Positions 2,609 to 40,348 of a DNA stretch of 64,000 nucleotides are shown here, one piece after another (the stretch's first letter is position 1; each line of letters opens with the position of its first letter). Source of the stretch: a virus; IMG/VR virus record IMGVR_UViG_3300032893_000030, positions 9,454 through 73,453 of that record, one strand, 5' to 3'. A program made the translations under genes and the position numbers. The notes beneath the pieces are model-generated. The model searched no databases. It had not been told where the DNA came from and saw nothing but the letters and a program-made list of their open reading frames with translations.

Positions 2609-4207
2609 ATGATGCCCAAGAACATTACATTCGATCAGGAAGCCACCGCCAAACTCAAGGCCGGCATCGACAAACTTGCAAACGCAGTCAAGGTTACTCT
2701 TGGCCCCGGAGGGACCAATGTGATCTATGAGAAGCAATTCGGTATTCCGTCCATCACAAAAGATGGTGTCACGGTTGCCCGTGAGATTTTTCTTGAAGAT
2801 ATCATTGAGAATATGGGTGCCCAGCTCGTCAAGGCTGTAGCCAATAAGACCGCAGATTCGGCTGGTGATGGAACTACGACAGCGACTGTATTGGCGCAGG
2901 CCATATTTACGGCTGGCATTAAGAACGTTGCCGCTGGGGCAAACAGGATGGATATCAAGAGAGGAATTGATGCTGCCGTTCAACAGACGGTAGCCAATCT
3001 CAAAAAAATGAGCCAGCCGGTTTCTGGAGATGACATTCAAAAGATTGCCACCATTTCTTCCAACGGAGATGAAGAAATTGGGCGATTGATCGCAACAGCC
3101 ATGGCAAAGGTCGGCAATGATGGGATTATTACCGTAGAGGACGCTAAGGCGACCAATAAGACGGAAGTTACCATTGTTGAAGGAATGCGCCTTGCGCGCG
3201 GATTCATCAGTCCCTATTTCATTACTGATCAGGAGAAGCAGGAAGCTGTGTTGATGGATCCATGCATTTTACTGTATGAAGGTGCGGTGACCAGCATGCG
3301 TCAACTTATTCCAATTCTTGAGGCGCAGCGTGAGAACAAGAAGACACAAGGTCGCCCAGTGCTTTTGATTGTGGAAGATGTTATCGGAGAAGGATTGTAC
3401 ACCCTGATCAAGAATTTTGTGCAGAAAGCCTTTGTTGGATGTGCGATTCAATGCCCTGATTTTGGCGAACAGCGCCGCGAGATCATGAAGGATATTGCGG
3501 CCATGACCAATGCCACAGTAATCAACAAAGAAACTGGATTGACGCTGGAGAAGGCAACACCGGACCATCTGGGTGGTGCTGAAAAAGTGCGTATTACCAA
3601 GGGCACGACTATTATCATTGGTGGACACGGACAGGGACCACGTAGTCAGCAGCGCATTGCGCATTTGAAGGCGCAACTGGAAGATGAGAATGTCTCAGAA
3701 GCATCAGGCAACCAGATCAGGGAGCGGCTGGCAAATTTGAGCAATGGCATTGCTGTGATTCATGTGGGGGGAGCAACTGATGTTGAGATTCTGGAGAAGA
3801 AAGACCGGCTTGATGATGCATTACACGCAACGCGGGCCGCTGTCCAGGAAGGAATTCTTCCTGGCGGTGGTGTAGCGCTGATTAGAAGCATGCCATCTGA
3901 AGTTCCGCCTGGTAATCCGGATTTTATTACCGGTGTCGATATCATTGAATCGGCTATTCAGGAACCGCTCAAGATCATCGCTGAGAATGCCGGCCAGAAC
4001 AAAGATCTAGTATTAAGTAAGGTGCTTGAAATGGAAGGAAACGTTGGATATGATGCCAAGCAACTCAAATATGTTGACATGATTGAGGCAGGCATCATCG
4101 ATCCAACAAAAGTTGTACGTCTGGCGCTGGAGAATGCGGCATCCATCGCTGGATTGTTATTGACCAGCCGCGCAGTTATTTCTCACGTTGAACCACCGCA
4201 ACAATGA
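2609..4207 (+). CDS. groL: chaperonin GroEL (Cpn60), phage-encoded
   Basis: 532 aa. Unmistakable Cpn60 sequence, including the ATP-binding AGDGTTTATVLA motif and conserved equatorial/apical segments. Lacks the C-terminal GGM repeat tail. Confidence 0.95.
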   Translation: MMPKNITFDQEATAKLKAGIDKLANAVKVTLGPGGTNVIYEKQFGIPSITKDGVTVAREIFLEDIIENMGAQLVKAVANKTADSAGDGTTTATVLAQAIFTAGIKNVAAGANRMDIKRGIDAAVQQTVANLKKMSQPVSGDDIQKIATISSNGDEEIGRLIATAMAKVGNDGIITVEDAKATNKTEVTIVEGMRLARGFISPYFITDQEKQEAVLMDPCILLYEGAVTSMRQLIPILEAQRENKKTQGRPVLLIVEDVIGEGLYTLIKNFVQKAFVGCAIQCPDFGEQRREIMKDIAAMTNATVINKETGLTLEKATPDHLGGAEKVRITKGTTIIIGGHGQGPRSQQRIAHLKAQLEDENVSEASGNQIRERLANLSNGIAVIHVGGATDVEILEKKDRLDDALHATRAAVQEGILPGGGVALIRSMPSEVPPGNPDFITGVDIIESAIQEPLKIIAENAGQNKDLVLSKVLEMEGNVGYDAKQLKYVDMIEAGIIDPTKVVRLALENAASIAGLLLTSRAVISHVEPPQQ

Positions 4208-4596
4208 ACTTATCCAAAGGAATTCCGCTCGAAGATCGAGTGTTGATCAAACCAAAAACTCCTGAAGAAAAAGTAGGAGATTTTTATCTCGGTGAAAAGG
4301 ATATCGAGAAACCCGTTGAGGGTGAAGTCATCTCGGTAGGTCCAGGTGCCTACAGTTACGGTGAAGAATTGATGGGGTCAATCCTTGAAGGAATCAATGT
4401 TCTTATTGAGAACAAAGGGTTGCAACCCATTCAGCGGCCATATTATCAGGCAATGAAGGTAAAGCCTGGTGATTATGTGTTGTACGGTCGTCATGCCGGC
4501 ACCAAACTAAGCATCAATGGAGAGACGTATCTGATGATTCGCCAATCGGACATTTTCATGATTATCGAAAAAGAGGTAGATTCGATAAACCAATGA
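4204..4596 (+). CDS. groS: co-chaperonin GroES/Cpn10-like (extended, gp31-like size)
   Basis: 130 aa. Overlaps groEL stop (ATGA). PLEDRVLIKP...GEVISVGPG...VKPGDYVLYGRHAGTKLSINGETYLMIRQSDIFMIIE aligns with GroES. About 35 extra residues relative to bacterial GroES. Confidence 0.85.
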   Translation: MNLSKGIPLEDRVLIKPKTPEEKVGDFYLGEKDIEKPVEGEVISVGPGAYSYGEELMGSILEGINVLIENKGLQPIQRPYYQAMKVKPGDYVLYGRHAGTKLSINGETYLMIRQSDIFMIIEKEVDSINQ

Positions 4597-4926: not shown

Positions 4927-4952
4927 GGTCCCCGCTACAATGAGCGGGGACC
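4927..4952. terminator. GC-rich hairpin between convergent genes (putative bidirectional terminator)
   Basis: GGTCCCCGCT-acaatg-AGCGGGGACC. Perfect 10 bp stem at the convergence point of the + groES block and the - GT2 gene. It overlaps the GT2 stop codon. Flanking U-tracts are weak. Confidence 0.35.
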
Positions 4953-5702
4953 ATTAGGGTAGCGTTCCTTCACCCACTCTTTGATAAATTTTGGCAAGTC
5001 ACTTTGAATCGGAATGACATCTTCTGTTGCAAAGAATCTTGATGGATCAAATTCTTCAATCCCCTCAATGCGGCGCTCTGGTTCTAACCGAAACACTTCA
5101 TTGATCATGTGACGGATCTTCACAAGGTGTTTCTTTGGGTCACGCACGTAACCCATGTGAAATATGTGAATGTTCTCCATGAAATTAAAACACACTTCAT
5201 TGCAAGCCAGACTCTCCGCGTCATCATAGCACCGGTATTTGGTTTTTGCCAATCGAAGCACTTCTGTTGAGCACGGCTTACGCTCCTGTGGAACATTGAG
5301 TTGATGCCAAGGATCATAGAACAGGTTGTGCCGCTTGACCATGTACGATTCAAATCCATACTCGATTGCCTCTCTAATGAGGGGGAATGAATCTTCGTGG
5401 ATGATCTCATCCATCTGGAGATAAAATTGGTAATCGGTTTCAAGGCGACTGATGGCCATATTGGAAAAGTAGCTGAGTTTCTCTTTTCCTTGTTGGTTAC
5501 GCCATTCTTCTGGAGCACACAGAATAATGGTGGTTTTTTTATCTCCAAGTTTCAATAGATGCTCCTGTGTTCCGTCCGTAGACCCAGCATCCAGGACAAT
5601 GACATGATCCGCTAACTCCTGCATGCAGGCAATAGTTTCGCGGAAATTATAGTCTTGCTCTATGGCATTGTAGACGAAAGAAGCACATCCAAGTGTTTTC
5701 AT
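4935..5702 (-). CDS. glycosyltransferase family 2
   Basis: 255 aa. N-terminal GT-A motif VIVLDAGSTDGT and a DxD-like region (LQMDEII). Confidence 0.8.
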   Translation of the reverse strand: MKTLGCASFVYNAIEQDYNFRETIACMQELADHVIVLDAGSTDGTQEHLLKLGDKKTTIILCAPEEWRNQQGKEKLSYFSNMAISRLETDYQFYLQMDEIIHEDSFPLIREAIEYGFESYMVKRHNLFYDPWHQLNVPQERKPCSTEVLRLAKTKYRCYDDAESLACNEVCFNFMENIHIFHMGYVRDPKKHLVKIRHMINEVFRLEPERRIEGIEEFDPSRFFATEDVIPIQSDLPKFIKEWVKERYPNGPRSL

Positions 5703-5726
5703 TAAATTAGAGGTAAAATTACAGTT

Positions 5727-5975
5727 ATGGCATACGAAGATGATGATGAAACCGAAGGACCAGGTGCCCCGCCAGCACAGCCATCTGACAAAAAGAAACT
5801 CAAGCAGCGCATCAGTGATCTGAAGATGGATAAGCGCGTTGGTAAATGGGTGGGCGATCCGGATAATCCTACCCGTGGAATATATAAGGCACCACGATCA
5901 GAACAGCGTGAATACCGCAAGACCATCAAACAAAAGATCAGAAATTTGAGGTCTGGCCTGCCGGAGGATAGTTGA
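5727..5975 (+). CDS. small basic hypothetical protein
   Basis: 82 aa. Acidic N-terminus, Lys/Arg-rich remainder. GAGGT upstream of the ATG. Lone + strand gene between - strand enzymes. An alternative antisense ORF 5702..5980 looks like a low-complexity artefact. Confidence 0.4.
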   Translation: MAYEDDDETEGPGAPPAQPSDKKKLKQRISDLKMDKRVGKWVGDPDNPTRGIYKAPRSEQREYRKTIKQKIRNLRSGLPEDS

Positions 5976-5976
5976 T

Positions 5977-6519
5977 TCATATTTTCTGGGCAACAACGTA
6001 GAATGAATAGCGGTCGCGTCCATGATCTTCTCCGCTTTTTACGTGAACAAATCGCGCCTTAATGTTGCGTCCATTATAATCATAAGCTCCTCCACAGAAT
6101 GCGCGCTCGAAGAAGAACATGAAATTCATGAATGTGTAAGCGCGAATGTGCTCTTTGTTGTCATAATGATTATAGTGAATACCGTTCGGTAGATATAATA
6201 CCAGATGTCCACCAGGCTTGAGAATCCGATGCCATTCAGTGATCATCGCATAATCGTCCAGCACATGCTCGAGGAAATGCGAAGAGAATACGGTGTCAAA
6301 ATGCTGAGCAGGGTATGATGGGAATTCTCCTACAAAGGTTACCCCTTCCAGTTTACGTCCGTCCACTCCATCTGCCGAAGAAACAATCTTGTCCGGGCCG
6401 CAACCCCAATCCACAATTCGCCCTTTGATAAAACCCATCAATTCTGGCATGTCACGAACCTTGGCGGATTCAGACATATAAAGTTTCAGTTTAGGATCAT
6501 TGTTGTTTTCCATTGACAA
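5977..6519 (-). CDS. class I SAM-dependent methyltransferase (MT type 11-like)
   Basis: 180 aa. Motif I VDWGCGPDK and motif post-II LKPGGHLVLYLP. A second enzyme at 15520..16128 shares the HF(L/V)EH..LKP(G/E)G pattern. Confidence 0.8.
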   Translation of the reverse strand: MSMENNNDPKLKLYMSESAKVRDMPELMGFIKGRIVDWGCGPDKIVSSADGVDGRKLEGVTFVGEFPSYPAQHFDTVFSSHFLEHVLDDYAMITEWHRILKPGGHLVLYLPNGIHYNHYDNKEHIRAYTFMNFMFFFERAFCGGAYDYNGRNIKARFVHVKSGEDHGRDRYSFYVVAQKI

Positions 6520-7921
6520 AGGATTTGATACGGGTAATGATTGAAGTTGTGGTGTGCGTAATACATGGAGGCAGAATAGTATTTATCTGGCAATTTTGTC
6601 CGCGTACAGAAATCACATCATGGTAACAACCGGCAAACTGGCAATCATTTTGTACTACCTCAATATTGGTAAGATCAGCATACCGATAGGCGGGGTTTAC
6701 AGATCCGAAAAATATCATCGATTTTACTCCGCATGCTACCGCAATGTGAGCTGGGCCAGAATCCAATCCGATAAAGAAATCCGCTCCGGCGATCACGAAA
6801 CTCAACATAGCCTCTGTCATAGTTTCCATCTTAACACCCACGCCATGGTCCTCTCTTCCAACCTGAATCGCGATGTATCCTAATGATCGGACAAATTCGC
6901 CAATACGTTTCCAGTCAACGCCATGAACATATCGGTGCGGCATGTCATTATGGTCCAGATGGAATACGATGTACTTTTTGAATAATCTGGTTTTATCAAC
7001 CTTGATGTTCAATCGAGAATTTCTCAGCGGACCCTTTTTGACCTTAGAGAACTGATAAAATGACTTTAGTACTAATTGCTGTGGAGTGACCTCATAGGTC
7101 ATATCCAGGTTGATAGTGAGTGGATTAAACAATGTGCCTTCCACATCATCATAGAATTCAATCGGGAAATAGTGATTTTTAAAGAGAGCATAGTTCTTCT
7201 CAGTTGTCTTCAAAATTATCCGATAACCATTGCTGTAATACCATTCCATGACTGGCTCCAGCATGATCACATCACCCATCGCCATGTGCCGGACAAATAC
7301 TACAGGCGGTTTCCATGGGGGATGAAAATAATTATGGAATCCAAAAGTTGGTCCTTTTGGGGCATGTAGTTCATAGCTGAATGAATGAGCAAGATCATCA
7401 GGGGCATAACGTATACCTTGCTTTTCCAGATAACCTCTGTACAGCCGACAGATTATTTCATCCTCTGGAGAACAGATATCAATATTGGTATCACTGATAA
7501 GCAGGTCATGCAATTTTTTTGTACGCATTGAAAATCCACCATTGCCGACATTGCGGCCGTCACGGTACATCCATGGAGCGCCGATGTAATCGTACTCAAG
7601 GAATCTGTCATCCCAGGCGTCCGCATTGATGACATAGCCATCATGCTGGATGATCATTACATGAGAAGTCTCAATATACTTACCCATTTCTTTGACGATA
7701 TAGCGATTGTAATCGACTACCGATCGAAATGGTTCAATCAACACGCACTGAAAGGCCGTGGATTCAAATTGGATGTCACAGAACAAAATCACTTTCGCAG
7801 GTGCAATCTGCATGAGTGTTTTGTGAATGGCGGTGATTGTGTTGCCGTAATCTTTGGTTGTGACAGCAACCACTGTGACTTCTGGAAGCTGTAGGCGATT
7901 ATCCTGCGAGTTCTCTGACAT
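6497..7921 (-). CDS. two-domain glycosyltransferase: N-terminal DUF5672-like domain fused to GT9 (heptosyltransferase-like) domain
   Basis: N-terminal half has YDYIGAPW...GNGGFSMRTKK, which is DUF5672-like. C-terminal half has MAMGDVIMLEPV... and FFIGLDSGPAHIAVACGVKSMIFFG, the GT9 signature. The longest ORF starts at 7996 but would overlap the upstream gene by 98 nt. In-frame ATG at 7921 preferred. Confidence 0.7.
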   Translation of the reverse strand: MSENSQDNRLQLPEVTVVAVTTKDYGNTITAIHKTLMQIAPAKVILFCDIQFESTAFQCVLIEPFRSVVDYNRYIVKEMGKYIETSHVMIIQHDGYVINADAWDDRFLEYDYIGAPWMYRDGRNVGNGGFSMRTKKLHDLLISDTNIDICSPEDEIICRLYRGYLEKQGIRYAPDDLAHSFSYELHAPKGPTFGFHNYFHPPWKPPVVFVRHMAMGDVIMLEPVMEWYYSNGYRIILKTTEKNYALFKNHYFPIEFYDDVEGTLFNPLTINLDMTYEVTPQQLVLKSFYQFSKVKKGPLRNSRLNIKVDKTRLFKKYIVFHLDHNDMPHRYVHGVDWKRIGEFVRSLGYIAIQVGREDHGVGVKMETMTEAMLSFVIAGADFFIGLDSGPAHIAVACGVKSMIFFGSVNPAYRYADLTNIEVVQNDCQFAGCYHDVISVRGQNCQINTILPPCITHTTTSIITRIKSFVNGKQQ

Positions 7922-8744
7922 AAGATTCAAAACAGCGTTGATAATAAAAGTCGTATGCTTTTTCTCCAGTTGGAATATTGCATGGCGCAAAGTCACATGC
8001 TTCCAGTATTCGAGGCACTTTTATTGCCTCAGCGAGTGCCATGCACAGTGATTGGTTGCCGATAAAAAATGAAGAAGATTTTATGACGATGGCTAATTCC
8101 AAAAAATCATTCACTCTCAGGAGTGGAATTTTGAGGTTGAATTTTTCACTGAAATCGCGCCACTCATGATCCAGGCCTGCAAAGAGAAGGCGCGACTCAA
8201 GCGGCTTCAAAAATGAATAATTGATTTGCTCATTCCGATATCGCTCCGTGCGATTGATGATGATTGTGTTTGGCGGCACCATATCATTGGTTGGTACAAA
8301 AAGCCATGGCTTTGAAATATCACAAGCCATTTCAGGATAAATGTAGAATGGCCAGCGCGTGATACAGCCATACGGTTTGTTGATGTCCACATCCGGATTT
8401 ACCATCATGTCCAGATCGATGTATGTCTTGCTTTGATCTATCTCAGGGATGAACTGATATTCTGGTGTCCCTTCATTTTCTCGCCGGTAAGTGAAGGTAC
8501 TCACTTCAACAATCCAGTCTTGCGACAGGAGAAGAGGCTTGAGCATTTTGACGTTGTGTTCTTGCAAAAGAATTCCATCGTCAGGATGCTTTGCTCCTTC
8601 ATAAAAGAACCCGATCAACCCTAATCCTAGATGAAGATGCGCTGGCCGATTAAACTTCCGGCAAACTTCCCGGATGCCGGCTAGTGACTGAATCAAATCT
8701 CCTGGTAGAAGAGAGAATTTGAAGTTTATCGGATCGGTTGTCAT
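7899..8744 (-). CDS. GT9-like glycosyltransferase (heptosyltransferase homologue)
   Basis: 281 aa. C-terminal LLFAGLDHEW...FFIGNQSLCMALAEAIKVPRILE matches the GT9 nucleotide-sugar binding region. Confidence 0.65.
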   Translation of the reverse strand: MTTDPINFKFSLLPGDLIQSLAGIREVCRKFNRPAHLHLGLGLIGFFYEGAKHPDDGILLQEHNVKMLKPLLLSQDWIVEVSTFTYRRENEGTPEYQFIPEIDQSKTYIDLDMMVNPDVDINKPYGCITRWPFYIYPEMACDISKPWLFVPTNDMVPPNTIIINRTERYRNEQINYSFLKPLESRLLFAGLDHEWRDFSEKFNLKIPLLRVNDFLELAIVIKSSSFFIGNQSLCMALAEAIKVPRILEACDFAPCNIPTGEKAYDFYYQRCFESYVRELAG

Positions 8745-8765: not shown

Positions 8766-9059
8766 TTGATTCAACTTAAAAAAAATTCTATGGCACGTTC
8801 AATTGATGTCCTTGTTTACCACTTTGTTGCCGGCGATCCTAACGGAGGACCCGCGAAATTGCTGGGTACGAGGCGCAGAGGTATCTCCGTGGATAACATC
8901 TTGGCACTTGATTCAGTCAATGTCCGAGGCGGGATGTCCGTCTACGGCCTTCCCATGCTGTATGGGAAGATTACATTGAAGCAGCCAGGATTGAGCCAGG
9001 AACTCTTCGTCATCGACACGGTTCAAGATCTCCTCAACAAAGAGAATACAGGAAACTAA
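8766..9059 (+). CDS. hypothetical protein (terminator-insulated small gene)
   Basis: 97 aa ORF. Probable start ATG 8790 (MARSIDVL...). AT-rich upstream region containing TAATTTTG. Followed by two hairpins. Confidence 0.4.
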   Translation: MIQLKKNSMARSIDVLVYHFVAGDPNGGPAKLLGTRRRGISVDNILALDSVNVRGGMSVYGLPMLYGKITLKQPGLSQELFVIDTVQDLLNKENTGN

Positions 9060-9066
9060 AACGAAA

Positions 9067-9090
9067 ATGCCGGAGCGTAATCCGGCATTT
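9067..9090 (+). terminator. hairpin ATGCCGGA-gcgtaa-TCCGGCAT
   Basis: 8 bp GC-rich stem immediately after the stop of the 8766..9059 gene. Short T stretch follows. Confidence 0.35.
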
Positions 9091-9125
9091 CGTGGCAACT
9101 TCCTCATTATTTGTTTTTCGGTTGT

Positions 9126-9160
9126 GCCTTCGGGGTGGTTCCCGAAGGCTTTTTTGTTTC
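9126..9160 (+). terminator. rho-independent terminator
   Basis: GCCTTCGGG-gtggtt-CCCGAAGGC followed by TTTTTTGTTT. Textbook intrinsic terminator. Confidence 0.7.
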
Positions 9161-9212: not shown

Positions 9213-9941
9213 ATGATTTTTTTGGAGGATTATTTCATTGTTCGGCCTGATTCATTCTATGCCGAGAAGAAAACCGCAACGGGACTTGAAACCCTCAATA
9301 CAGCATGGATCATGCGCGGTGATCGCGATGAAAACGAATTCAAATGCCTTAAAGGAACCATCATTGCCTCCCCGATCGGGTATTCATTGAACCGGTATTC
9401 GCCAATTGATCGCGGACTTCCAAATCATCGGCTATTCATCAGCCATGACCGTCTTCAGTATCGCGAGAATACCGGAGCCAACATTGAGAAAACCCCCTAT
9501 CATCCGGGAATGATGCTTGATTTCAAATACCTGAGTTTTCAAGATTATGCCCAGCGCGTAACAGCAAAAAAGGGTGATCAAGTCTACTTTCATCCACATG
9601 TAACCGAACAGGAAAATCTATTTCCGGATGGCACCTATAAAGTGCGTGTTGATCAATTGATCTGCACACTCGATCCTATCTGTCCACAAGGCCAATATGT
9701 ATTGATCCAGCCGGTTATGGAATCCGAAGATGAGATCACCATGGGTGGATTTCAAATCAAAATTGAGGCGCAAGTAAAAGCACTCCAGGGAATTGTGCGG
9801 TACACGAATAATGGGATGGTGAGTGCTGGAGATCATGTAATTTTCGAAGAGGCATCTGATTGGGAAGTTGACATTGAGGGTGAAAAATTTTATGTGATGC
9901 AAATGGAAAATCTCCTGATGAAACTAAAACCAGCAGTATGA
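9213..9941 (+). CDS. tandem (double) Cpn10/GroES-fold protein
   Basis: 243 aa from ATG 9213. Table ORF starts at 9111 but that would include the terminator. C-terminal half ITMGGFQIKIEAQVKALQGIVRYTNNGMVSAGDHVIFEEASDWEVDIEGEKFYVMQMENLLMKL aligns with GroES (TAGGIVL...GEVLAVGNG...VKVGDIVIF...IDNEEVLIMSESDILAIV). N-terminal half has a weaker repeat of the same pattern (FIVRPDSFYAEKKTATGL...KGTIIASPIG...KKGDQVYFHPHVTEQENLFPDGTYKVRVDQLICTL). Confidence 0.5.
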   Translation: MIFLEDYFIVRPDSFYAEKKTATGLETLNTAWIMRGDRDENEFKCLKGTIIASPIGYSLNRYSPIDRGLPNHRLFISHDRLQYRENTGANIEKTPYHPGMMLDFKYLSFQDYAQRVTAKKGDQVYFHPHVTEQENLFPDGTYKVRVDQLICTLDPICPQGQYVLIQPVMESEDEITMGGFQIKIEAQVKALQGIVRYTNNGMVSAGDHVIFEEASDWEVDIEGEKFYVMQMENLLMKLKPAV

Positions 9942-10694: not shown

Positions 10695-10891
10695 GTCATC
10701 AGTTCTCTTTATTTGGATATCAGCGGCCGCGCGCGAAAGTCCCCATAAGCGCTGAACGGATTCGGCAGATACAATCTGAGATTGAATCAGGCAAGGATAA
10801 GGACGCGCTTGATCACATGCGATTGCTTCGTGAGTCTCTGGAGAATTACGAACGCAGGATCAGAACAAAATCACTTGTTGAGGGTGAATAG
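10691..10891 (+). CDS. hypothetical protein
   Basis: 66 aa. ATGA overlap with the upstream gene. Converges on the - strand structural block. Confidence 0.35.
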   Translation: MSHQFSLFGYQRPRAKVPISAERIRQIQSEIESGKDKDALDHMRLLRESLENYERRIRTKSLVEGE

Positions 10892-11395
10892 AACCTGGGT
10901 GTTGGATGCTGAAGCATCATAAGATACCGGTGCCCCGCCATTCTGGAATTCAGCATTTGTTGGAAATGTTTGTTCCTGAAGAACAGCCGCAGCGGATCCC
11001 AAACTCTGAGCTTTGATTCTCCGATATGGTTTCGGGATTTTGTAGACCGAAATCCCAGATTGTGAACTGGGGAATGCCGCTTCCAGCGTCATCCGGTTTT
11101 GGCTCTTGACAAACAAAATCCTGCGCGCATACAGGCACAAGCCATCAGTGATGTAATCGTTTGGATTGAACTCGTCCTGAAACTTGGTATTGGCATCACC
11201 GAGTACTTCTTTACCCAAAGAGGCATCTGTATTGAATGTGCTCAGGGTTCCTGATTTGTAGACCCTGATCGGCAAAACACCTTTGTTGGGCACCGTCCCA
11301 AGAATAGGATGAGATGTGGATCCTGAAGGACCGACAACGACCCGTATGGCTTCTATGTCATCATGTATGAGGGTCGGATTCAAGCCTGTTGCCAT
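10871..11395 (-). CDS. hypothetical virion-module protein
   Basis: 174 aa. Last gene of the long - strand block. Confidence 0.5.
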   Translation of the reverse strand: MATGLNPTLIHDDIEAIRVVVGPSGSTSHPILGTVPNKGVLPIRVYKSGTLSTFNTDASLGKEVLGDANTKFQDEFNPNDYITDGLCLYARRILFVKSQNRMTLEAAFPSSQSGISVYKIPKPYRRIKAQSLGSAAAVLQEQTFPTNAEFQNGGAPVSYDASASNTQVLFTLNK

Positions 11396-11420
11396 AAGCG
11401 TAATTTTAGATTAAAGGTAC

Positions 11421-14400
11421 TCAAAAGTTTGGTTTGGAGGACTTCTTAACCTGGTTCATCTGCCACTTGAGTAGATCCACATCTATTGGCAGGGTCACTT
11501 TTGTCTTCACATTAAGTCCAGTATTCGTCAGGAACTGATCACGGCCAAGGTCAGCGGCTTTGTCATACAGAAAGCGAAGTGTTTTCTTGCGCGTTTCCGG
11601 GGAATCATTATCCCAAGTCTTGATATATGAGGATGCGTAATTTGCCCGTTGCTGACCAACGTATTGCGCCAATAGCGAATATTCATCTCCGGTAAGTTGA
11701 CGGCTTTGGCCATTGTAAGTGATCTTTCGCGTTGGACTTTGTGGCAACCAGTCGCCACTGTAATCGGTTTTCCAAGCCTCATATAATTTGAATCGGAAGC
11801 CATCAGTATCAACAGCACGGAATTTTGATGGATCGAATAAATAATAAAATGCCTTGTTACGTCCTTCGGGGGCACCGGTTATCTTGTCACCCCAGATATT
11901 GACTTTTGCCGGCAGACTTTCACCAATGAATAGTTTGGTCTTGTAGGTATTGACGAGTTTCTTTCCAAAGGAGTCATCCTTAATATCCCTGGAATAAGTG
12001 TCCGATGCCCTGCTGATAGATGCAACAACATTTGGAAGGGCAATCGCGCCAAGCGTTTCGGTGGTCTTCAATAACCAGGCCTGCGTTTTCTCATCTCCTC
12101 CGTCTCGAATGGCCTCAAGCAATGTTGATGTACCAGAAAGGAAAGTTTGATCAAGCGCATTGGAAGCTGTCCTGATGCCAGTTTCGGAGATGTCGGTCAG
12201 ATATGTCTCGAGTCCGCCATGCATACTGCCGGTTTTGGCTACGCGATCTTTGTACAGATTGGAATAATTATCGAATAGCACACCAAGCACACCCATCCGC
12301 TGATAGCTGACCCAGATGTCATCTTTTTTTGTTTCCCAACCGTGTCCAGACAGGCCTCGCGATATGGCCGAAGCATTGATGGAATTCGCTGGCGGTGCCC
12401 CGCCTTCAGCCTGGAAGTCACGTTTCTTTTTTTCCTTGTCATCATCCCCGGTCAAAAGTCCACGCATGAATAGACTCGAGGCGACCGACCAAATCATTGT
12501 GCCTACCATGGCCTTTCCGGCCAGTACGCTTGCCTGACGTTTATTCCCAAGATTTGCCTGATGAATGGCCATTCCGAGCGTGATCGGCGGTGCTGCATAT
12601 TGCAGAGTTTCCGACATCAGGTTCCATGGTGTTTTAATGAAGAGAATCTGCGATTTCAATAGCACCTTCGCGGCACCGCCAAGCAATGGACCGCCCTTCT
12701 CCTCAATCATATTGAGAAATGAGGCAATTCCCCGCTGCAGGTTCTGTCCAAAGTGCCCTTGTTGTTGAAATGTTGATTCCTCCCCAGCTTTCGTGATCTC
12801 GGCCTGTGATTCTTCATCCGGCAGAGCAATGAATTTCTCCGCCTCTGCACCGGTAAGTCCTTTCAATTTTGCCAATTCATAGGCTTTTGCCATTTCAGCC
12901 GCGCGCCGCCATGGTTTATCCCCAAGATTTAGTGCTCGGAACATGGCTTCTGCCTCCCAACCTATGGTGCCCTCAATGGCATCATTAATCTTTTGGGAAA
13001 GTGATCGATCGGCCTGCACCCAACGCTCAATGGCGCGTCCAGGATTAAAGTTTGAATGGATCTCTCTCAGATTGCGTTCATTGGCTTGGGCACCTGTCTT
13101 GAGTTGATTAAGACCTTCAATTGTGCCACTCCATCCGCCCTTAAAATATCCTTTCTGTGCAGCTACAAGATCAATCGTCCGATCCTTGAATGTTTCCGGT
13201 AGCATGCCGAGTTTAGCCATCTGTGACATCATGTAATCAGCGAACTGCCCGCTGGCGGTGGACATAAACCGGATTGGCTGAAATGTCAGATTGTAAAAGA
13301 CGTTTGATACTAAAGAAAGCACCGACATGACATTACCCTGCATTATGGCAATTAATGTATCGGATAATTTATTCGGGGTGGTAGCGAAATTCTGCAAGTG
13401 CTGATTTGCCTGAATTGCCGCTTCACGTAATTCTTTCAACTTAGCAAATCCTTCAGGAGTGAAGTTTTCGCGTAGGTCTTTTTCAAATTTCTCAGCCGTT
13501 GAAATTGTTTTGGCTAATTCACGAACTTTTGCTTTGTCTTCAGCAGACAATTTGCGGTATCCCAATTGTTTTGCATACAGATCATTGAACTTCTGATCGG
13601 TAAGTTTACCCTCATTGTACGCATCAACAACCGACTGAATGAAGTCTTTCTTTTTCTTTCCCTTGATCTTTGGTGTTTCTACTGCTTGCTCATTGATATT
13701 TTCGGCCTTAACTGGTGAAGTCAATAACTGTTCGACCCCTGGCTGGACTGCCTGTTTGAATTTTTCTTCATCGAATGGCTCCTTTTGATTGGCCTTGATG
13801 TAGTCGATGCCGGCTTGAATGGCATTTGCGACATCCGCCCCCGTCAGTATGGCTTGCTTAATGATGTCCAGCGAAGCATTCCAGACATGCGGCAATACAC
13901 CAATCGGAAGAATAGTTGCCGTGGCAATGCCGCCCTTGGTGTTGATCTTGAGTTTATCGAAGAAGTCACCGATTTGCTTCTTTTTTGACTCACTGATCAG
14001 TTTTGCCTTCTCAAGACGTTTGCCGACCTGCTCTTGAACTCCCTTTTCTACCAAGCGCCTGATTTCCGCTTCAATCTGCTGCTTGGACATTGCCACCGCA
14101 TTTTGAATAGGGCCAAGCAGATTATCGGCCTGTTGCCGGTTCTGCCGCTCGACGGCCATGACAATTTGGTCCTCTCCAGACTGTAGAATCTTCTTCCAGA
14201 ATTTACCGGTATTGGATGTGCGGCCGGACTGCATCAGGAAATTCTCAGCCCAGAAAGCCAAATCCACGGCCTTTTCGTATAGAACGGTTTTTTCCTGTGG
14301 ATCCGTTGCCGCCTCAGCCTGCCGGGTGTATTGGTCGAATAATTGTCCCGCCATCACACTGCGCGTGTCTCCTGATATTCCATTGCTGGTATCTCTGATT

Positions 14401-14870
14401 GCGGCTTCGGAGGCCTCTGGACCAAGTTCCTTGATCTTTTGGGCGGCCTGTTCTTCAGTCAGATTCAATCCCTTTGGAATGTAGGTATCACCCTTGGTTT
14501 TCAGGCCGGATTTGACCTCTGTAGGCTGTCCAGACTCTTCTACTCGCTTACCAAGTGCAAATTGCCTGGCTGCGGGTTCATTAGAGGCTGTAGAAGGCGT
14601 TGTAGTTGTTGGTGGTGCTGGAGGTTGTCCAGATGTCGGTTCGCTTGGCTGGCTTTGAATCTTGCCGCGTGTAGTGCCTTTTAATCCAAGCTGTTTATGA
14701 ACCTGCTTTATCCCTTCAACAATCTTTGCTTGCTCATCAGACAAAGCCTTCATATCAGCCTCCTTCTCACTCATGCCGGATTTCTGATATTCCTGACTTC
14801 TGGCGAGTAATGCCGCCTTGTCCTGTTCGGTGAGAACCTTGTTTTTGCCTAAACAATCACCCAGCGCCAT
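11421..14870 (-). CDS. large virion-associated protein (putative internal/ejection or tail protein)
   Basis: 1149 aa. N-terminal coiled coil. Pro/Thr linker (PPAPPTTTTPSTAS). Central hydrophobic TM-like segments (AAPPITLGMAIH, VLAGKAMVGTMIWSVASSLFMRGLLTG). No enzymatic motif recognised. Confidence 0.55.
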   Translation of the reverse strand: MALGDCLGKNKVLTEQDKAALLARSQEYQKSGMSEKEADMKALSDEQAKIVEGIKQVHKQLGLKGTTRGKIQSQPSEPTSGQPPAPPTTTTPSTASNEPAARQFALGKRVEESGQPTEVKSGLKTKGDTYIPKGLNLTEEQAAQKIKELGPEASEAAIRDTSNGISGDTRSVMAGQLFDQYTRQAEAATDPQEKTVLYEKAVDLAFWAENFLMQSGRTSNTGKFWKKILQSGEDQIVMAVERQNRQQADNLLGPIQNAVAMSKQQIEAEIRRLVEKGVQEQVGKRLEKAKLISESKKKQIGDFFDKLKINTKGGIATATILPIGVLPHVWNASLDIIKQAILTGADVANAIQAGIDYIKANQKEPFDEEKFKQAVQPGVEQLLTSPVKAENINEQAVETPKIKGKKKKDFIQSVVDAYNEGKLTDQKFNDLYAKQLGYRKLSAEDKAKVRELAKTISTAEKFEKDLRENFTPEGFAKLKELREAAIQANQHLQNFATTPNKLSDTLIAIMQGNVMSVLSLVSNVFYNLTFQPIRFMSTASGQFADYMMSQMAKLGMLPETFKDRTIDLVAAQKGYFKGGWSGTIEGLNQLKTGAQANERNLREIHSNFNPGRAIERWVQADRSLSQKINDAIEGTIGWEAEAMFRALNLGDKPWRRAAEMAKAYELAKLKGLTGAEAEKFIALPDEESQAEITKAGEESTFQQQGHFGQNLQRGIASFLNMIEEKGGPLLGGAAKVLLKSQILFIKTPWNLMSETLQYAAPPITLGMAIHQANLGNKRQASVLAGKAMVGTMIWSVASSLFMRGLLTGDDDKEKKKRDFQAEGGAPPANSINASAISRGLSGHGWETKKDDIWVSYQRMGVLGVLFDNYSNLYKDRVAKTGSMHGGLETYLTDISETGIRTASNALDQTFLSGTSTLLEAIRDGGDEKTQAWLLKTTETLGAIALPNVVASISRASDTYSRDIKDDSFGKKLVNTYKTKLFIGESLPAKVNIWGDKITGAPEGRNKAFYYLFDPSKFRAVDTDGFRFKLYEAWKTDYSGDWLPQSPTRKITYNGQSRQLTGDEYSLLAQYVGQQRANYASSYIKTWDNDSPETRKKTLRFLYDKAADLGRDQFLTNTGLNVKTKVTLPIDVDLLKWQMNQVKKSSKPNF

Positions 14871-15136: not shown

Positions 15137-15535
15137 TTAAGTTCTGGTTACTGTACTTGTTGTGACTCCATCTCCGGTAATTGCCTGATTTATCGCTCCA
15201 GCACTACGAGTAGTCGGAGTGACCGTCATTGGATTGGCCGACTGAAGACCCTGCAATTTATGCAACTCATCAAGCTGAGTGGAGAGCACGATTTGATTTC
15301 CCGCGAATTGAATCTCTTTATATCCCTTGACTACACCACCATTTGTTTGAATAATGGCGATGTAGATACCATCAGCAATTGATCCTGGTGCATTGCCATA
15401 ATAATGCCCGCTTCGGTTCGTGTTTTCAGTCATGGTTACATCACTTCCGATCTGCGTATTTCCAGACCAGAATTTGCACACCAAGGTTAAACCGGTGTCC
15501 GAAGCGGGGAGTACTATGTTTATTTCGTTGGCCAC
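15137..15535 (-). CDS. hypothetical protein
   Basis: 132 aa. Ser/Thr/Gly-rich. Confidence 0.45.
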   Translation of the reverse strand: MANEINIVLPASDTGLTLVCKFWSGNTQIGSDVTMTENTNRSGHYYGNAPGSIADGIYIAIIQTNGGVVKGYKEIQFAGNQIVLSTQLDELHKLQGLQSANPMTVTPTTRSAGAINQAITGDGVTTSTVTRT

Positions 15536-16128
15536 GGTTGCTTTGTAAAGGTAGCGATAATATCCTGTGCTGCTTCCTTATAATTTTGGAATGCCATCTG
15601 CTGATACTCTTGATTTCTCGCGGCCAATTCAGGAGTCATAGTGTAACCCCATGTCACATTGAAGTGACATTTGTAGAAATCGTTGTGTGGCGCGTTCAAT
15701 GCTCTCCAGTTTACATCCAGATAGTAGAACCAAAATTCTGCCACCGGAGGGAATTTATGAGTAAGATCCCCGTAGGCGCGCGATGATGCCCAATGCGGTG
15801 TGACGATCAACGCTTTCCCTTCAGGCTTGAGTACACGGTACAATTCATTGACGAAGTGAACTCGCTCCATTGGCTCAAGATGTTCCACGAAATGTGAAGC
15901 ATGTGCTTCTTCTACTGAGTTGTCTTTCCATGGCCATTTATCCTTGCCGATATTCATCACGACATCGACACCCTCAAACTTGATGATGTCAATACCGGTG
16001 AATCCTTCTTTCTTTCTTGTGCCACAGCCAAAATCAAGTTTGATCGGTGGGTTTCCTTCCAGCGTATCCTTGATGCGCTTTGATGATTTCATTTTATTCA
16101 TTGGTTTTTCGGTTGTTTCTGATTTCAC
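15520..16128 (-). CDS. class I SAM-dependent methyltransferase
   Basis: 202 aa. Motif I LDFGCGTRK. HFVEHLE...LKPEGKALIV. Paralogue-like to 5977..6519. Confidence 0.75.
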   Translation of the reverse strand: MKSETTEKPMNKMKSSKRIKDTLEGNPPIKLDFGCGTRKKEGFTGIDIIKFEGVDVVMNIGKDKWPWKDNSVEEAHASHFVEHLEPMERVHFVNELYRVLKPEGKALIVTPHWASSRAYGDLTHKFPPVAEFWFYYLDVNWRALNAPHNDFYKCHFNVTWGYTMTPELAARNQEYQQMAFQNYKEAAQDIIATFTKQPWPTK

Positions 16129-16835
16129 CAGGTTATGTCTTCAACGGGATCATAGTGACCAACTTTCACTGAACAATCAATCGCTGCCCGATATCCAAAC
16201 TTTCTGAAATCAGACCACGCGTATAAGTCTTGAGTTCCAGCACCTTCTTTGCCGGCTGTAGTCTTGAACCATGGTTTTCTGAGTCGTTCATCTTTGAAGA
16301 GTTTCATGCGAAAAAGAGTGAACCCCATTCCTGTTCCGCAACACTCAACGAGTCCGCCATTCGGATCTGGTGGCTGTGGTCTGAAGTTCAAAATCGGATC
16401 TTTCGGATCTCCCCAGATTTGACAGCACCCTCCAATTCCTTTTGTGAAATAAAGTCCTCCTATCGCGGCAAATTCTTTATGCATTTCCATTCGCTCCAGA
16501 AGCCTTATCAATCCATCTGGTGGCGGGATATTGTCGTGTTCGATTGTGAGGATATACTCCCACTTTGATAACTCAGGATGTTTCAATATTTCTTCAATGG
16601 CATTGGAGAATGCTTCACCTACTTCCATGCCGATACATGCCATCCGGTATGAAGGATTGTTGGGTGGGAAGATCAATCCGCAATGTGAAAGATAAACTTT
16701 TGTTGGAATGCTTGGGCCAGCAGGGATTAGCATGATCACGCGCTGTCTCCGCCATGATCCTCCTTGAATAAGTCGCTGTCCTGATTTGTGTAAGTCTTTG
16801 TTATGGACTCCTTGTTCTAATCCGATGATAGGCAT
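16125..16835 (-). CDS. glycosyltransferase (GT-A fold, family-2-like)
   Basis: 236 aa. ILTIEHDN (DxD-like) and C-terminal DLYAWSDFRKFGYRAAIDCSVKVGHY, typical of GT2/GT25-type LPS/capsule transferases. Confidence 0.65.
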   Translation of the reverse strand: MPIIGLEQGVHNKDLHKSGQRLIQGGSWRRQRVIMLIPAGPSIPTKVYLSHCGLIFPPNNPSYRMACIGMEVGEAFSNAIEEILKHPELSKWEYILTIEHDNIPPPDGLIRLLERMEMHKEFAAIGGLYFTKGIGGCCQIWGDPKDPILNFRPQPPDPNGGLVECCGTGMGFTLFRMKLFKDERLRKPWFKTTAGKEGAGTQDLYAWSDFRKFGYRAAIDCSVKVGHYDPVEDITW

Positions 16836-16847: not shown

Positions 16848-18338
16848 TTATTGAATTCCTAAAATTTGAAAATACATCCGTGAATGATTGCCAAGTGAGC
16901 TGATTGCTGACAGCGGGAAATTCGCTGTAGTTCCGCCTCCAGCAGTTGAGAAACTACCAGCACCAAGCATTAGACCGGCTGATGTACCATTGGTTGATCC
17001 CATTACTCTGAAGATAGAGTTAACCATCGTACCAGCGAAGTAGTTTGAGTACTGCACGTTAGCGCCAGTCATATTTGAATAACCACCAGCAGAATTTGTT
17101 GCCGATGAAGAACTGTAACCAATGACTGCCCAATATGGTCCATCCAAAAGACTTCCGATCATTTCAATGTCAATGAACCGGCCAGCGGAAAACTGTGTAG
17201 CAATCTGATTTGTGGTCAGTGAATAGTTAGTATTGGATATGGAATATTGCGTAGTTAATGTCGTTCCTGCGCCATTGGCATGCGCGGAAAAAGCCTGTGT
17301 CACGGAGTATTGAGTACCATTGACGGCAACACTCATGGAGTTCATGAATGTGTAACCGTTGCTTCCGGAAGTGACTGAATAAAGCTGGGTTGAATTTGTT
17401 CCTGTGCCGACTGAATAGATCACAGCGTTCCATGTGCTATACAATGCTCCTGACACATTGGCCGTCTGTGCTGTTGTACCAAAAGTGGTACTACCTGTTG
17501 TCATGCTTACAGGAATACGTAAGTACGACATGGTGATTGGATTTGGCACCTGAAATACAGCGGCGTGTGATATAGAGACACCGTTTATTCCACCAGTTGC
17601 AGCAGCAATAGGAGCAAAGAAATTTTCGTAAGATGAAATGAATGGCTGTACAACAGCAATCACCAATGATGAGTTGGAAAATCCAACTGAAGCAAGACCA
17701 CTACCATAAATCGATTGTGAACGCGCATCAAAAGTTGATGACGTTGATTGCCCTCCTATCGTGTTACCTACTGCATATTCACCGAATGTCTGATTGGACT
17801 GTGAGAATGAAACAGTTCCGGTAATAGTCGAACCACTTAATCCAAAAGAAATGTTATTGGAATTGGAAAAAACAACTGATCCAAGATTGCCACTACTTCC
17901 ACCGGCAGAGAAATTTACCGGTGAAGGCGCTGCGGAAAATGATGCAGTGACTGTTGATCCACTCAGTCCGAATGAAATGCTATTGGCATTTGAGAAGACA
18001 AGACTACTCAACAGATTACTTGCTGTACCGGCAGAAAAAGCAATGTTTGTCAAACTCGAAGCAACTGATGCGGTAACTACCGATGAGTTGCTCATTCCAA
18101 ACGTCACGTTGTTGCTGTTGGAGAAGAAGATATCTCCGGTGCGTCCAACTTGAGTTCCGGCACTTATTCCTTGGACATTGCTTTGCGTCTGATTTGACTG
18201 TGAAAAAGATGCTGTGACAGTCTGTCCGTTGATTCCAAAAGAAACACTGTTACTATTTGAGAATACAACTTGCCCTAATGAGGCCGAACCAGCACCTGCT
18301 GAAATCGAACCTGGCGCTATGAGTTGTTCAGCAATCAC
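16848..18338 (-). CDS. tail fibre / receptor-binding protein with internal repeats
   Basis: 496 aa. At least 4 tandem ~35-40 aa repeats of (V/I)(V/F)FSNSN-x-(S/T)FG-x-(S/N)G-x-T(V/I)TAS. The repeats are also visible at DNA level around 17.8-18.2 kb. Confidence 0.7.
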   Translation of the reverse strand: MIAEQLIAPGSISAGAGSASLGQVVFSNSNSVSFGINGQTVTASFSQSNQTQSNVQGISAGTQVGRTGDIFFSNSNNVTFGMSNSSVVTASVASSLTNIAFSAGTASNLLSSLVFSNANSISFGLSGSTVTASFSAAPSPVNFSAGGSSGNLGSVVFSNSNNISFGLSGSTITGTVSFSQSNQTFGEYAVGNTIGGQSTSSTFDARSQSIYGSGLASVGFSNSSLVIAVVQPFISSYENFFAPIAAATGGINGVSISHAAVFQVPNPITMSYLRIPVSMTTGSTTFGTTAQTANVSGALYSTWNAVIYSVGTGTNSTQLYSVTSGSNGYTFMNSMSVAVNGTQYSVTQAFSAHANGAGTTLTTQYSISNTNYSLTTNQIATQFSAGRFIDIEMIGSLLDGPYWAVIGYSSSSATNSAGGYSNMTGANVQYSNYFAGTMVNSIFRVMGSTNGTSAGLMLGAGSFSTAGGGTTANFPLSAISSLGNHSRMYFQILGIQ

Positions 18339-18931
18339 TTAGCGGTGGCAGTAATAGAATCCATCCGGCCGTTATTGCGGCGCTGGATGACAAAGTTCCA
18401 TTCTTTAGGTGATGTCTTGGTAGAAAGTCCCTTGCTGATTTCCATCAAGTGTTGTGAGTAATCGGGAGATTCGGACTGTTCTTTGGATTGAATGGCCACG
18501 ATCAAATCAGCGATGTCTTTGGAATTTCGATTTGCGGAAAGTTCAATGAGTCGAATGGCCTTATCAATCAATGCTCCATACTTCTCATTGTTGGCTGTTA
18601 CCAGGGAAGAGATGGTTGAAGTCATCTTCTCATTCTGCTCTTTGATCTCCTGCACAATCTGAGTCAGGCGAGTGTTGGTCTTAGCCACGTCGGGCACGTC
18701 AACCCGAAGTGTCACTTTACTGAGTGCCTCCAGGGTAGTATTGATCTTGCCAAGCGCCTGGCCGATGGAAGTTTTCAACTCCTCATCGAAATGTTGCACA
18801 TCACCAAGTTTGCTTAATGCTTCAGTGAGTTCAGTAATGAGTCCATTGAGATAAGCATCGCGCTCCTGGCTCTGCTTTTCAGTGGATCTGATCTCTTCGA
18901 GTAAGTCTTCAACCCTGCTCATAGTATGCAA
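18335..18931 (-). CDS. coiled-coil protein (possible fibre assembly/structural)
   Basis: 198 aa, predominantly alpha-helical heptads. ATGA-type overlap with the fibre gene. Confidence 0.45.
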   Translation of the reverse strand: MHTMSRVEDLLEEIRSTEKQSQERDAYLNGLITELTEALSKLGDVQHFDEELKTSIGQALGKINTTLEALSKVTLRVDVPDVAKTNTRLTQIVQEIKEQNEKMTSTISSLVTANNEKYGALIDKAIRLIELSANRNSKDIADLIVAIQSKEQSESPDYSQHLMEISKGLSTKTSPKEWNFVIQRRNNGRMDSITATAK

Positions 18932-27767: not shown

Positions 27768-27982
27768 GCCTTCAGAGGATGTTCCTTGGTGTACGTTTCG
27801 CTGGACTTATACTCATCTCCTTCTTTCCAGCGCCGGTGAATAATGTGACCATTGTCGATTTTCCTGATTTCGATAGTTTCTCCCCGCTTCATTGGTTTTA
27901 CCGAAGATGCACCAGCCGCAATGGGTTTGTCTTCTGATTTCGTTCCACTGGATTTTGAGTATCCCGCTTTAACAGTTGCCAT
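27764..27982 (-). CDS. hypothetical protein
   Basis: 72 aa. Overlaps the neighbour's start (ATGA). Confidence 0.4.
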   Translation of the reverse strand: MATVKAGYSKSSGTKSEDKPIAAGASSVKPMKRGETIEIRKIDNGHIIHRRWKEGDEYKSSETYTKEHPLKA

Positions 27983-27988
27983 GGTATT

Positions 27989-40298: not shown

Positions 40299-40310
40299 TG
40301 GTTTTTCGGT

Positions 40311-40348
40311 TAAATTTTAAAGAAACGGGGGTTTTTAGCCCCCGTTTC
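40311..40348 (-). terminator. strong rho-independent terminator after major capsid gene
   Basis: AAACGGGGG-tttttag-CCCCCGTTT (9 bp stem), with T/A-rich tracts on both sides. Lies 8 nt downstream of the MCP stop. Confidence 0.7.

Follow-up and report, generated by a model that had tools for sequence, protein, structure and literature searches.

Glycosyltransferases of family GT9 are best known as the heptosyltransferases of the lipopolysaccharide (LPS) inner core, and a set of GT9-like genes in a phage raises the question of which molecule the encoded enzymes modify. The set lies in a 64,000-nucleotide window of the virus record IMGVR_UViG_3300032893_000030 (positions 9,454 to 73,453 of that record), where four co-directional open reading frames (ORFs) on the minus strand fill positions 4935–8744 and form the island analyzed here. 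An earlier note on this DNA had described a carbohydrate-modification cluster in a phage, a label that the domain calls and the surrounding phage genes support, and had placed its four minus-strand genes between neighbors of the opposite orientation; the coordinates are exact, and plus-strand genes lie on both flanks. As functions, the note had offered serotype-converting modification of host LPS or modification of virion proteins. With moderate confidence, we favor the reading that the island builds a methylated sugar chain on a protein, most likely a virion protein, and not on host LPS.

The island sits in a phage genome of roughly 73 kb, and identical sequence occurs on contigs of 62.6–73.5 kb from several samples. 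Among the gene products of the window are a large terminase, a portal, virion proteins, a single-stranded DNA-binding protein, HNH nucleases, GroEL, and GroES. The terminase, portal, and virion genes, together with the recurrence of the sequence on these contigs, exclude the possibility raised in the earlier note that the cluster is host flanking DNA. The host is probably a Bacteroidota bacterium, because the nearest cultured relatives of the terminase are podophages of Flavobacterium, Cellulophaga, and Tenacibaculum (about 24% identity), genome-sized contigs bearing the DUF5672+GT9 fusion described below are binned in metagenome-assembled genomes (MAGs) of Cyclobacteriaceae, Chitinophagaceae, and other Bacteroidota, and a Shine-Dalgarno-like core precedes only 3 of 37 genes, whose upstream regions are 66% A+T.

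The fusion occupies the ORF at 6497–7996 (minus strand), which encodes 499 aa if read from its GTG codon. The gene calls, the lengths of homologues (463–480 aa), and the N-terminal consensus of the methyltransferase family all agree on Met26 (position 7921) as the start of the fusion, giving 474 aa, and on 6477 as the start of the adjacent methyltransferase; a database protein 100% identical to the fusion is 474 aa long. Two Pfam families exceed their cut-offs in this protein: DUF5672 (PF18922; 59.1 bits against 24.4, E = 5e-16) and Glyco_transf_9 (PF01075; 25.3 bits against 22), whose match covers just 39 residues (aa 401–439 of the 499-aa ORF). Among the island proteins, Pfam assigns GT9 to the fusion only. 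The AlphaFold model (pLDDT 89.4) has two domains, with low confidence at residues 435–444. In a Foldseek search, the DUF5672 half (7322–7894, approximately aa 10–200) matched GT-A enzymes (chondroitin synthase, GlyE of family GT8, LH3, GT6 enzymes, and LARGE1), and its conserved motifs are IQHDG, DYIGAPW, and DGRNVGNGGFSLR. The second half (6500–7315, aa 203–474) is a GT9-type GT-B domain whose top Foldseek match in the PDB is TibC (1.4e-9), followed by 3tov, WaaC, and WaaF (E values of 1e-9 to 3e-6). As both Pfam thresholds are passed and the predicted structure agrees, the call of a DUF5672-like+GT9 fusion stands, and the model suggests that the two halves together make a bifunctional GT-A + GT-B enzyme.

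The GT9 half shares the GT-B fold, the GD motif, and the FIGxDSGPxH signature with the LPS enzymes WaaC, WaaF, and WaaQ (CAZy GT9, PF01075). Its N-lobe motif reads AMGDVIM-EP and its C-lobe carries the FIGxDSGPxH sequence; G216, D217, D387, S388, and G389 are invariant in 40 fusion sequences, and the region aligns with the signatures of 3tov and WaaC. Asp13 is the catalytic residue of WaaC, and an invariant Gly-Asp in the first β-α turn of the N-lobe matches its position in both the fusion and the 281-aa island protein. The best NCBIfam matches are heptosyltransferase III and RfaQ, with hepto_Aah_TibC also listed. These features, including the GT9 match above the Pfam threshold, speak for remodeling of the host envelope, in which the LPS or lipooligosaccharide core (or another glycolipid or polysaccharide) would receive sugars and a methyl group at the inner membrane face so that the receptor is masked; such masking would exclude superinfecting phages or stop progeny from adhering to debris. 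We regard this explanation as rather unlikely. It is nonetheless a serious rival, given the classical GT9 catalytic signature and the soluble or peripheral nature of LPS core enzymes. The fusion differs from the WaaC-type enzymes in that sequence similarity extends over only about 40 residues and in its additional Cys4 insertion and GT-A domain, and the island genes are encoded by a phage and have no 3-deoxy-D-manno-oct-2-ulosonic acid (Kdo) or lipid A context. No genes for ADP-heptose synthesis or sugar-nucleotide synthesis were found in the available annotation of the phage, which comprises Pfam scans of the larger ORFs (structural block) and precomputed Pfam results over about two thirds of the genome.

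Against an LPS acceptor also stands the observation that the best solved relatives of the island enzymes are TibC and GmaR, not LPS enzymes. In profile searches of all PDB sequences, TibC came first both with the whole fusion (E = 0.006) and with its C-terminal domain (E = 0.002), over about 100 residues, whereas WaaC, WaaF, and 3tov gave E values of 0.07–0.8 over about 40 residues. Like TibC and AAH (the BAHT family; PDB 4rap and 4rb4; eLife 2014, PMC4358343), the fusion has a GT9-type GT-B core in a predicted soluble, cytoplasmic enzyme and four cysteines inserted at the matching point of the C-lobe, and its model has a small four-stranded N-lobe, as TibC does (PMC4358343). In TibC, an Fe finger with the ligands Cys339, 342, 358, and 370 mediates dimerization and recognition of the β-helical protein substrate (PMC4358343). 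The corresponding motif of the fusion, C-x(2-6)-C-[YW]-H-x6-G-x2-C-x7-PPC (6563–6643, minus strand), contains Cys427, 432, 444, and 453 and His434, all invariant in 40 sequences, and is a candidate metal finger. Its first Cys lies 15 residues past the aligned block, as does TibC Cys339, but the spacing differs (C-x4-C-x-H...C-x8-C in the fusion versus C-x2-C-x15-C-x11-C in TibC). TibC Thr226 aligns with a conserved Thr of the fusion, Lys230 with a His-Arg pair, and Pro300 with the invariant Asp of the classical DSGPxH. Against the curated BAHT model hepto_Aah_TibC (TIGR04414), the fusion scored 15.4 bits (E = 0.007) and failed the family cut-off of 200. The GT9 half is thus closer to TibC than to the LPS enzymes but is no member of the BAHT family, and at most it can be proposed that this domain may work like a TibC-type enzyme.

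The 281-aa protein (7899–8744, minus strand) is GT9-like by fold only. It gave no Pfam match at E ≤ 1 and no PHROG match, and against NCBIfam RfaQ it reached 13.9 bits (E = 0.017; cut-off 467). Its AlphaFold model (pLDDT 94.7) is a compact GT-B fold, and the Foldseek matches in the PDB are headed by the GT9 structure 3tov (2.8e-8), followed by WaaC, TibC, and WaaF; as the top matches are all GT9, the GT9-like call made for this gene holds, at the level of predicted fold only. Gly15-Asp16 at the N terminus is invariant in the alignment, and hhalign gave a weak match (E = 6e-5) between the C-lobe segment FFIGNQS and the FIGxDSGP signature of the fusion. Within this segment, the invariant Gln231 replaces the Asp of the GT9 DSGP motif, and its donor may therefore not be ADP-heptose. 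The protein thus shares the fold and the GD motif with WaaC, WaaF, and WaaQ but falls about 50 residues short of their length, does not pass Pfam, and carries Gln where they have the signature Asp. Some of its homologues are fused to, or lie immediately before, methyltransferases. A match to quinolinate synthase in the comparison of its profile with PDB sequences (E = 0.29) was rejected as a chance match, the structure search alone being informative for this protein.

The GT2-like GT-A enzyme (255 aa; 4935–5702, minus strand) lies just above the cut-off of PF13704 (Glyco_tranf_2_4; 28.3 bits against 27.5) and below that of PF00535 (19.8 against 23.3), and it matches phrog_13126, annotated as a beta-1,4-glycosyltransferase (E = 4e-10). 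It carries the motifs DxSxDGT and QxDE, in which D43, T45, Q96, D98, and E99 are invariant. When a profile of 21 GT2 sequences was compared with PDB sequences, the flagellin O-GlcNAc transferase GmaR was found at E = 5e-4 over aa 19–204, and SpsA came next at 0.33. GmaR (Listeria; PDB 22ao), which acts on protein, has the same GT2-type GT-A domain with DxSxD and DxE/DE motifs. The similarity is remote, however, and the phage protein is a single domain of 255 aa, whereas full-length GmaR is larger and doubles as an anti-repressor. The methyltransferase (ORF 5977–6519, 180 aa; 5977–6477, or 166 aa, from the start given above; minus strand) is a class I S-adenosylmethionine (SAM)-dependent enzyme of the Methyltransf_11 family (PF08241; 38.2 bits against 21.2, E = 2e-9), and its profile retrieved only generic class I methyltransferases from the PDB. 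Of the assignments in the earlier note, that of the SAM methyltransferase is clearly supported and that of GT2 only marginally; the methyltransferase is probably a sugar O-methyltransferase.

Enzymes of these classes could also act on DNA. Phage GT-A and GT-B enzymes glycosylate 5-hydroxymethylcytosine in DNA with diverse sugars, including heptose and Kdo, and the DNA-acting GT-B enzymes resemble T4 β-glucosyltransferase (bioRxiv 10.1101/2023.12.21.572611). The clusters that encode them resemble the island in their sequential GT-A and GT-B enzymes and sugar-modifying partners, but they adjoin C5 methyltransferase and 5mYOX genes, or ThyS-like genes, none of which flank the island. By this route the island glycosyltransferases would place a methylated glycan on hydroxymethylated pyrimidines and thereby evade restriction, which we consider highly improbable. 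The phage does encode a 643-aa C5 cytosine DNA methyltransferase (57898–59829, plus strand), but it is about 18 kb from the island, and such pathways are normally clustered. No TET/JBP-type dioxygenase (5mYOX) or thymidylate-synthase-like hydroxymethylase is present in the available Pfam annotation of the genome, the island methyltransferase is a Methyltransf_11 class I enzyme and not a DNA methyltransferase, and T4 β-glucosyltransferase is missing from the top 50 PDB matches listed for the fusion and for the 281-aa model. The lack of a TET/JBP or ThyA-like enzyme and the distance of about 18 kb leave DNA hypermodification poorly supported. In the 643-aa protein, the C5 methyltransferase domain takes up only the first ~220 residues; no family match was found for the remaining ~400, which might form an additional domain or an extended target-recognition region.

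Several properties of the island and its genome bear on the choice between LPS and protein. All four enzymes are predicted to lack membrane helices and have pI values of 5.2–6.5; LPS core enzymes have a basic membrane-binding face, so that the acidic to neutral character of the island enzymes argues against an LPS acceptor. Gtr, flippase (Wzx), polymerase (Wzy), and polyprenyl-phosphate or lipid-carrier transferase domains are absent from the island and from the available Pfam annotation of the genome. The same annotation holds none of the features of a serotype-conversion module (GtrA, GtrB, GtrC, an acetyltransferase, a temperate lifestyle); no integrase or lysogeny module was detected in it, and known seroconverting systems belong to temperate phages. 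If the target were LPS after all, the receptor masking would be unusual in coming from a phage without sign of lysogeny. DUF5672 itself also occurs where LPS is absent or not expected: many giant viruses, which infect hosts devoid of LPS, have folds that resemble it, and the domain is found in Saccharibacteria, Paceibacterota, and Lachnospiraceae, bacterial lineages in which no LPS is expected. Between the two functions that the earlier note had left side by side, the evidence therefore leans toward virion-protein modification: the affinities of the enzymes to TibC and GmaR, the absence of membrane helices and of Gtr, Wzx, Wzy, and lipid-carrier genes, the lack of an integrase, and the DUF5672 folds of giant viruses favor a protein acceptor.

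The distribution of the island gives this preference a further basis. The fusion has more than 1,200 relatives at E ≤ 0.001, and the 120 matches listed are all full length or nearly so and 46–56% identical, apart from the window's own protein; among the matches listed, no fusion lies on a contig longer than 84 kb. In the genome collection, full-length fusions were found only on phage-sized (72–78 kb) or short contigs binned into MAGs, and the bacterial chromosomes searched carry stand-alone DUF5672 only. Among cultured phages, the fusion matched nothing but genes with DUF5672 alone, in Synechococcus phages and marine viruses. The architecture, which had been called unusual, is so with respect to characterized proteins, cultured phages, and the bacterial chromosomes searched, from all of which it is absent, but within this metagenomic phage clade it is common. 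A search of the literature on DUF5672, phage heptosyltransferases, and phages with chaperonins and glycosyltransferases found no prior description.

On one bacterial chromosome, that of Rubrivivax rivuli, housekeeping genes enclose a trio made up of a stand-alone DUF5672 gene, a Methyltransf_11 gene, and a GT4 gene, in this order; the adjacency of DUF5672 and a methyltransferase recurs in other Betaproteobacteria loci, and the Rubrivivax methyltransferase resembles the second methyltransferase of the phage described below. This trio supports the link between glycosyltransferase and methyltransferase and identifies no acceptor.

The genes for the 281-aa protein, the fusion, and the GT2 enzyme are syntenic in about 40 IMG/VR contigs (37–53% identity), often beside GroEL, and the methyltransferase is present in about half of these. 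Within the same loci the identities of the fusion and of GroEL rise and fall together. This synteny and parallel divergence indicate that the island is a vertically inherited core of the clade, set within a chaperonin module, and inheritance at GroEL-like divergence, as opposed to accessory status, counts against LPS remodeling. The content around the core varies. Relatives carry two GT17-like genes, another GT2, a GT17-methyltransferase fusion, a short-chain dehydrogenase/reductase (SDR) that resembles UDP-hexose 4-epimerases, and three methyltransferases including an RMNT_CmcI (rhamnosyl O-methyltransferase-like) enzyme; Methyltransf_24 members are among the methyltransferases of these islands. 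We considered whether the SDR is the ADP-heptose 6-epimerase HldD; its UDP-hexose 4-epimerase-like sequence lends no support to a heptose pathway. Variable glycosyltransferase and methyltransferase content resembles that of O-antigen and core loci, which speaks for an envelope target, as does the position of the island outside the main structural operon, among early and chaperonin genes. It is also the pattern expected of a glycan-diversifying locus, and the comparison as a whole points to assembly of a methylated oligosaccharide.

The chaperonin genes suggest a further acceptor. GroEL (2609–4207) and GroES (4204–4596) are on the plus strand, convergent with the GT2 gene, and on the other side of the island a plus-strand gene at 9213–9941, divergent from it, encodes a 242-aa protein with a C-terminal Cpn10-like domain (Pfam Cpn10, E = 8e-9). 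The position of this gene is kept in close relatives; several relatives have GroEL about 15 nucleotides behind GT2, in the same orientation, and a Cpn10-like gene is often found between those for the 281-aa protein and the fusion (184 aa in one). It is unusual for a glycosylation island to be surrounded by several co-chaperonin paralogues. The enzymes could thus act on some other soluble acceptor, such as a host protein modified for takeover, the phage chaperonin or co-chaperonin-like proteins, or a small molecule; the persistent link to GroEL, GroES, and Cpn10-like genes, the Cpn10-like gene inside the island of several relatives, and the predicted solubility of all four enzymes fit this idea. 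It seems improbable to us, since the synteny is equally well explained by a shared role in virion-protein maturation, and a set of four transferase domains with a methyltransferase points to an oligosaccharide and not to a regulatory single-sugar mark. We know of no precedent for glycosylated chaperonins in phages.

A second glycosyltransferase and methyltransferase pair lies in the tail gene block of the same phage (15520–18338, minus strand) and, like the inheritance of the island with the clade, gives the proposed function of virion-protein modification an additional basis. It comprises a GT-A-like glycosyltransferase of 236 aa (16125–16835; phrog_12406 "glycosyltransferase," E = 4e-4, with weak matches to A197 of Sulfolobus turreted icosahedral virus and to SpsA) and a second SAM methyltransferase of 202 aa (15520–16128; Methyltransf_11, E = 6e-6; phrog_6636, E = 2e-12) that is 28% identical to the island methyltransferase. 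Both genes are directly behind one for a Ser-rich repeat protein of 496 aa (16848–18338; 29% Ser+Thr). A motif search revealed at least five N-terminal repeats with the core vvFSNSNNiSFGlSGStvTAS, of strand-loop-strand-like character; a BLAST self-comparison of the virion proteins found no repeats.

Searches with the repeat protein identified 26 very diverse viral contigs of 8–447 kb. A GT-A gene lies within 0–6 kb in 20 of these 26 loci, downstream on the same strand in 19, and a methyltransferase is also present in 17. The GT-A enzyme has more than 518 relatives in IMG/VR, the 80 listed being 63–76% identical, and in 76 of 77 new GT-A loci a methyltransferase is encoded on the same strand no more than 3 kb away; the repeat protein is upstream of GT-A in 43 of the 61 loci with enough upstream sequence. 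These counts are strong evidence of association and define a widespread cassette of a Ser-rich, fibre-like protein, a glycosyltransferase, and a methyltransferase. The cassette may be a widespread unit for virion-protein glycosylation, with the 496-aa protein as a candidate acceptor, and its presence makes virion-protein glycosylation more plausible for this phage.

If the island does modify virion proteins, it would work as a soluble, virus-encoded module for glycan assembly, in which four glycosyltransferase domains (the GT2-like enzyme, the DUF5672 GT-A domain and the GT9-type GT-B domain on one polypeptide, and the 281-aa GT9-like enzyme) add sugars sequentially from the nucleotide-sugar pools of the host. 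The DUF5672 fusion would couple two consecutive transfers; its C-terminal domain would act like TibC or AAH, with the Cys4 finger aiding oligomerization or recognition of the protein substrate, and one of the sugars would be O-methylated by the SAM methyltransferase. As acceptor, a late phage protein is most likely, such as a fibre, spike, or capsid component of the virion, and the outcome would be a short methylated O-linked glycan on the particle, comparable with the virion glycosylation of mycobacteriophages and chloroviruses. In this scheme we infer the acceptor, the order of transfer, the donor sugars, metal binding, and a sugar as the methyl acceptor. A broader proposal, which we advance only tentatively, is that uncultured Bacteroidota phages of a large clade carry protein O-glycosylation machinery of their own, centered on the bifunctional DUF5672-GT9 enzyme; in the cytoplasm, and alongside phage chaperonins, virion proteins would be hyperglycosylated and methylated.

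A number of observations weigh against a virion-protein acceptor. What is known of the module here comes from sequence and predicted structure. The closest relatives of the phage keep the island and lack the cassette between the homologues of its 862-aa and 1149-aa proteins; the cassette is thus an accessory insertion, and the 496-aa protein is ruled out as the universal acceptor of the island. The similarities to TibC and GmaR are remote (about 16% identity for TibC, and profile E values of 1e-3 to 1e-4 overall). The N-terminal β-barrel of TibC is absent from the fusion, which has the DUF5672 GT-A domain in its place, and the sugar-binding residues Arg286 and Trp305 of TibC are not kept, the HMMER alignment having an insertion and Gln/His there; the DSGPxH signature of the fusion is of the classical LPS-heptosyltransferase type. 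A best solved relative does not settle which acceptor is used. LPS core enzymes of the WaaC type are soluble or peripheral too and likewise without membrane helices, so that the missing helices do not exclude a lipid A–core acceptor. Finally, no cultured relative carries the module: a near-identity search of INPHARED phages with the island DNA found nothing, and tblastn searches of the same collection with the 281-aa protein and with the 1149-aa protein also found nothing.

Virus-encoded clusters for glycan assembly are already known, and the island can be compared with two kinds. In mycobacteriophages, virion glycosylation clusters of the Che8 and Corndog type are reportedly backed by experimental demonstration of glycosylation, said to be the work of Freeman et al. 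in 2023. Like the island, they combine phage glycosyltransferase sets, some with an O-methyltransferase, with the use of host sugar nucleotides, and their content varies between related phages. They differ in enzyme families and in their Gram-positive-type hosts, and glycosylation by the island is a prediction. To our knowledge, no GT9 or DUF5672 enzyme occurs in the mycobacteriophage clusters. Chlorovirus PBCV-1 A064R and related giant-virus systems are likewise cytoplasmic, multi-domain, virus-encoded glycosyltransferases with sugar methyltransferase activity, but these viruses infect eukaryotes, their capsid glycans are N-linked, the domain families and the architecture are others, and the only homology seen with the island is the GT-A fold.

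The gene order of the island departs in one respect from the earlier description of tightly packed genes. The 281-aa gene and the fusion overlap by 23 nucleotides, and the fusion and the methyltransferase are separated by 19, so that these three are tightly packed; a gap of 274 nucleotides separates the methyltransferase from GT2 and holds a charged plus-strand ORF of 82 aa (5727–5975). The gene callers, whose calls for the region were taken from identical contigs in three public sources, report this ORF, and codon usage favors it (log-odds per codon +0.22, against −0.15 for an overlapping minus-strand ORF). It has no homologue in the other loci compared and is specific to this phage. A minus-strand ORF of 92 aa (5702–5980), whose ATGA-type overlaps would have made the operon perfectly tight, was rejected on codon usage and composition. 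Because of the gap and its opposite-strand ORF, the island is not one uninterrupted tight operon.

Beyond the island, plus-strand ORFs of 55 aa (on the GroEL/GroES side) and 89 aa (8790–9059, on the other flank) adjoin it. Between the latter and the Cpn10-like gene, positions 9064–9149 hold two strong hairpins on opposite strands (9091–9064, minus; 9126–9149, plus, followed by a T-run) that look like a bidirectional terminator. The plus-strand hairpin overlaps the mechanical TTG start of the Cpn10-like gene at 9111, and this gene therefore probably starts at 9213. A scan for sigma-70 promoters gave the level of shuffled sequence (16 found against 11.4 ± 3.4 expected), the model being unsuited to a Bacteroidota host.

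Elsewhere in the window, the region at 24105–29465 (minus strand) has weak Pfam matches to the C-terminal domain of the crAss muzzle protein (26.5 bits, below the cut-off of 27) and to crAss tail ring protein 2, which suggest a distant crAss-like podovirus tail. Candidates for the major capsid protein lie at 39198–41813, and further fibre-like proteins at 10871–14870 and 33882–37763. The 862-aa putative virion protein (18919–21507, minus strand) contains a gamma-glutamyl cyclotransferase (GGACT/AIG2-like) domain at aa 707–799 (E = 9e-14), and an SPFH/Band 7 domain protein (E = 5e-14) is encoded among the early genes at 61713–62255 (plus strand). Outside the window, the genome encodes a GH25 lysozyme and a VapE/Toprim primase-helicase.

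What is new in this locus is an uncharacterized, widespread enzyme that joins DUF5672 to a TibC-like GT9 domain with a Cys4 finger, and its consistent link to phage chaperonins. Chloroviruses and giant viruses, and lately mycobacteriophages, are established examples of viruses that encode the glycosylation of their virions; the modification affects antibody recognition and probably particle stability and adsorption. If the island glycosylates virion proteins, it would extend this phenomenon to phages of Gram-negative Bacteroidota and would give TibC-type heptosyltransferase-like enzymes a second setting, outside bacterial adhesins; its compact, soluble enzymes would also be of use in glyco-engineering. 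It would, moreover, provide the first function for DUF5672, which occurs in phages and giant viruses as well as in bacteria. Taken with the Ser-rich cassette, it would mean that virion glycosylation is common among environmental phages of Gram-negative hosts.

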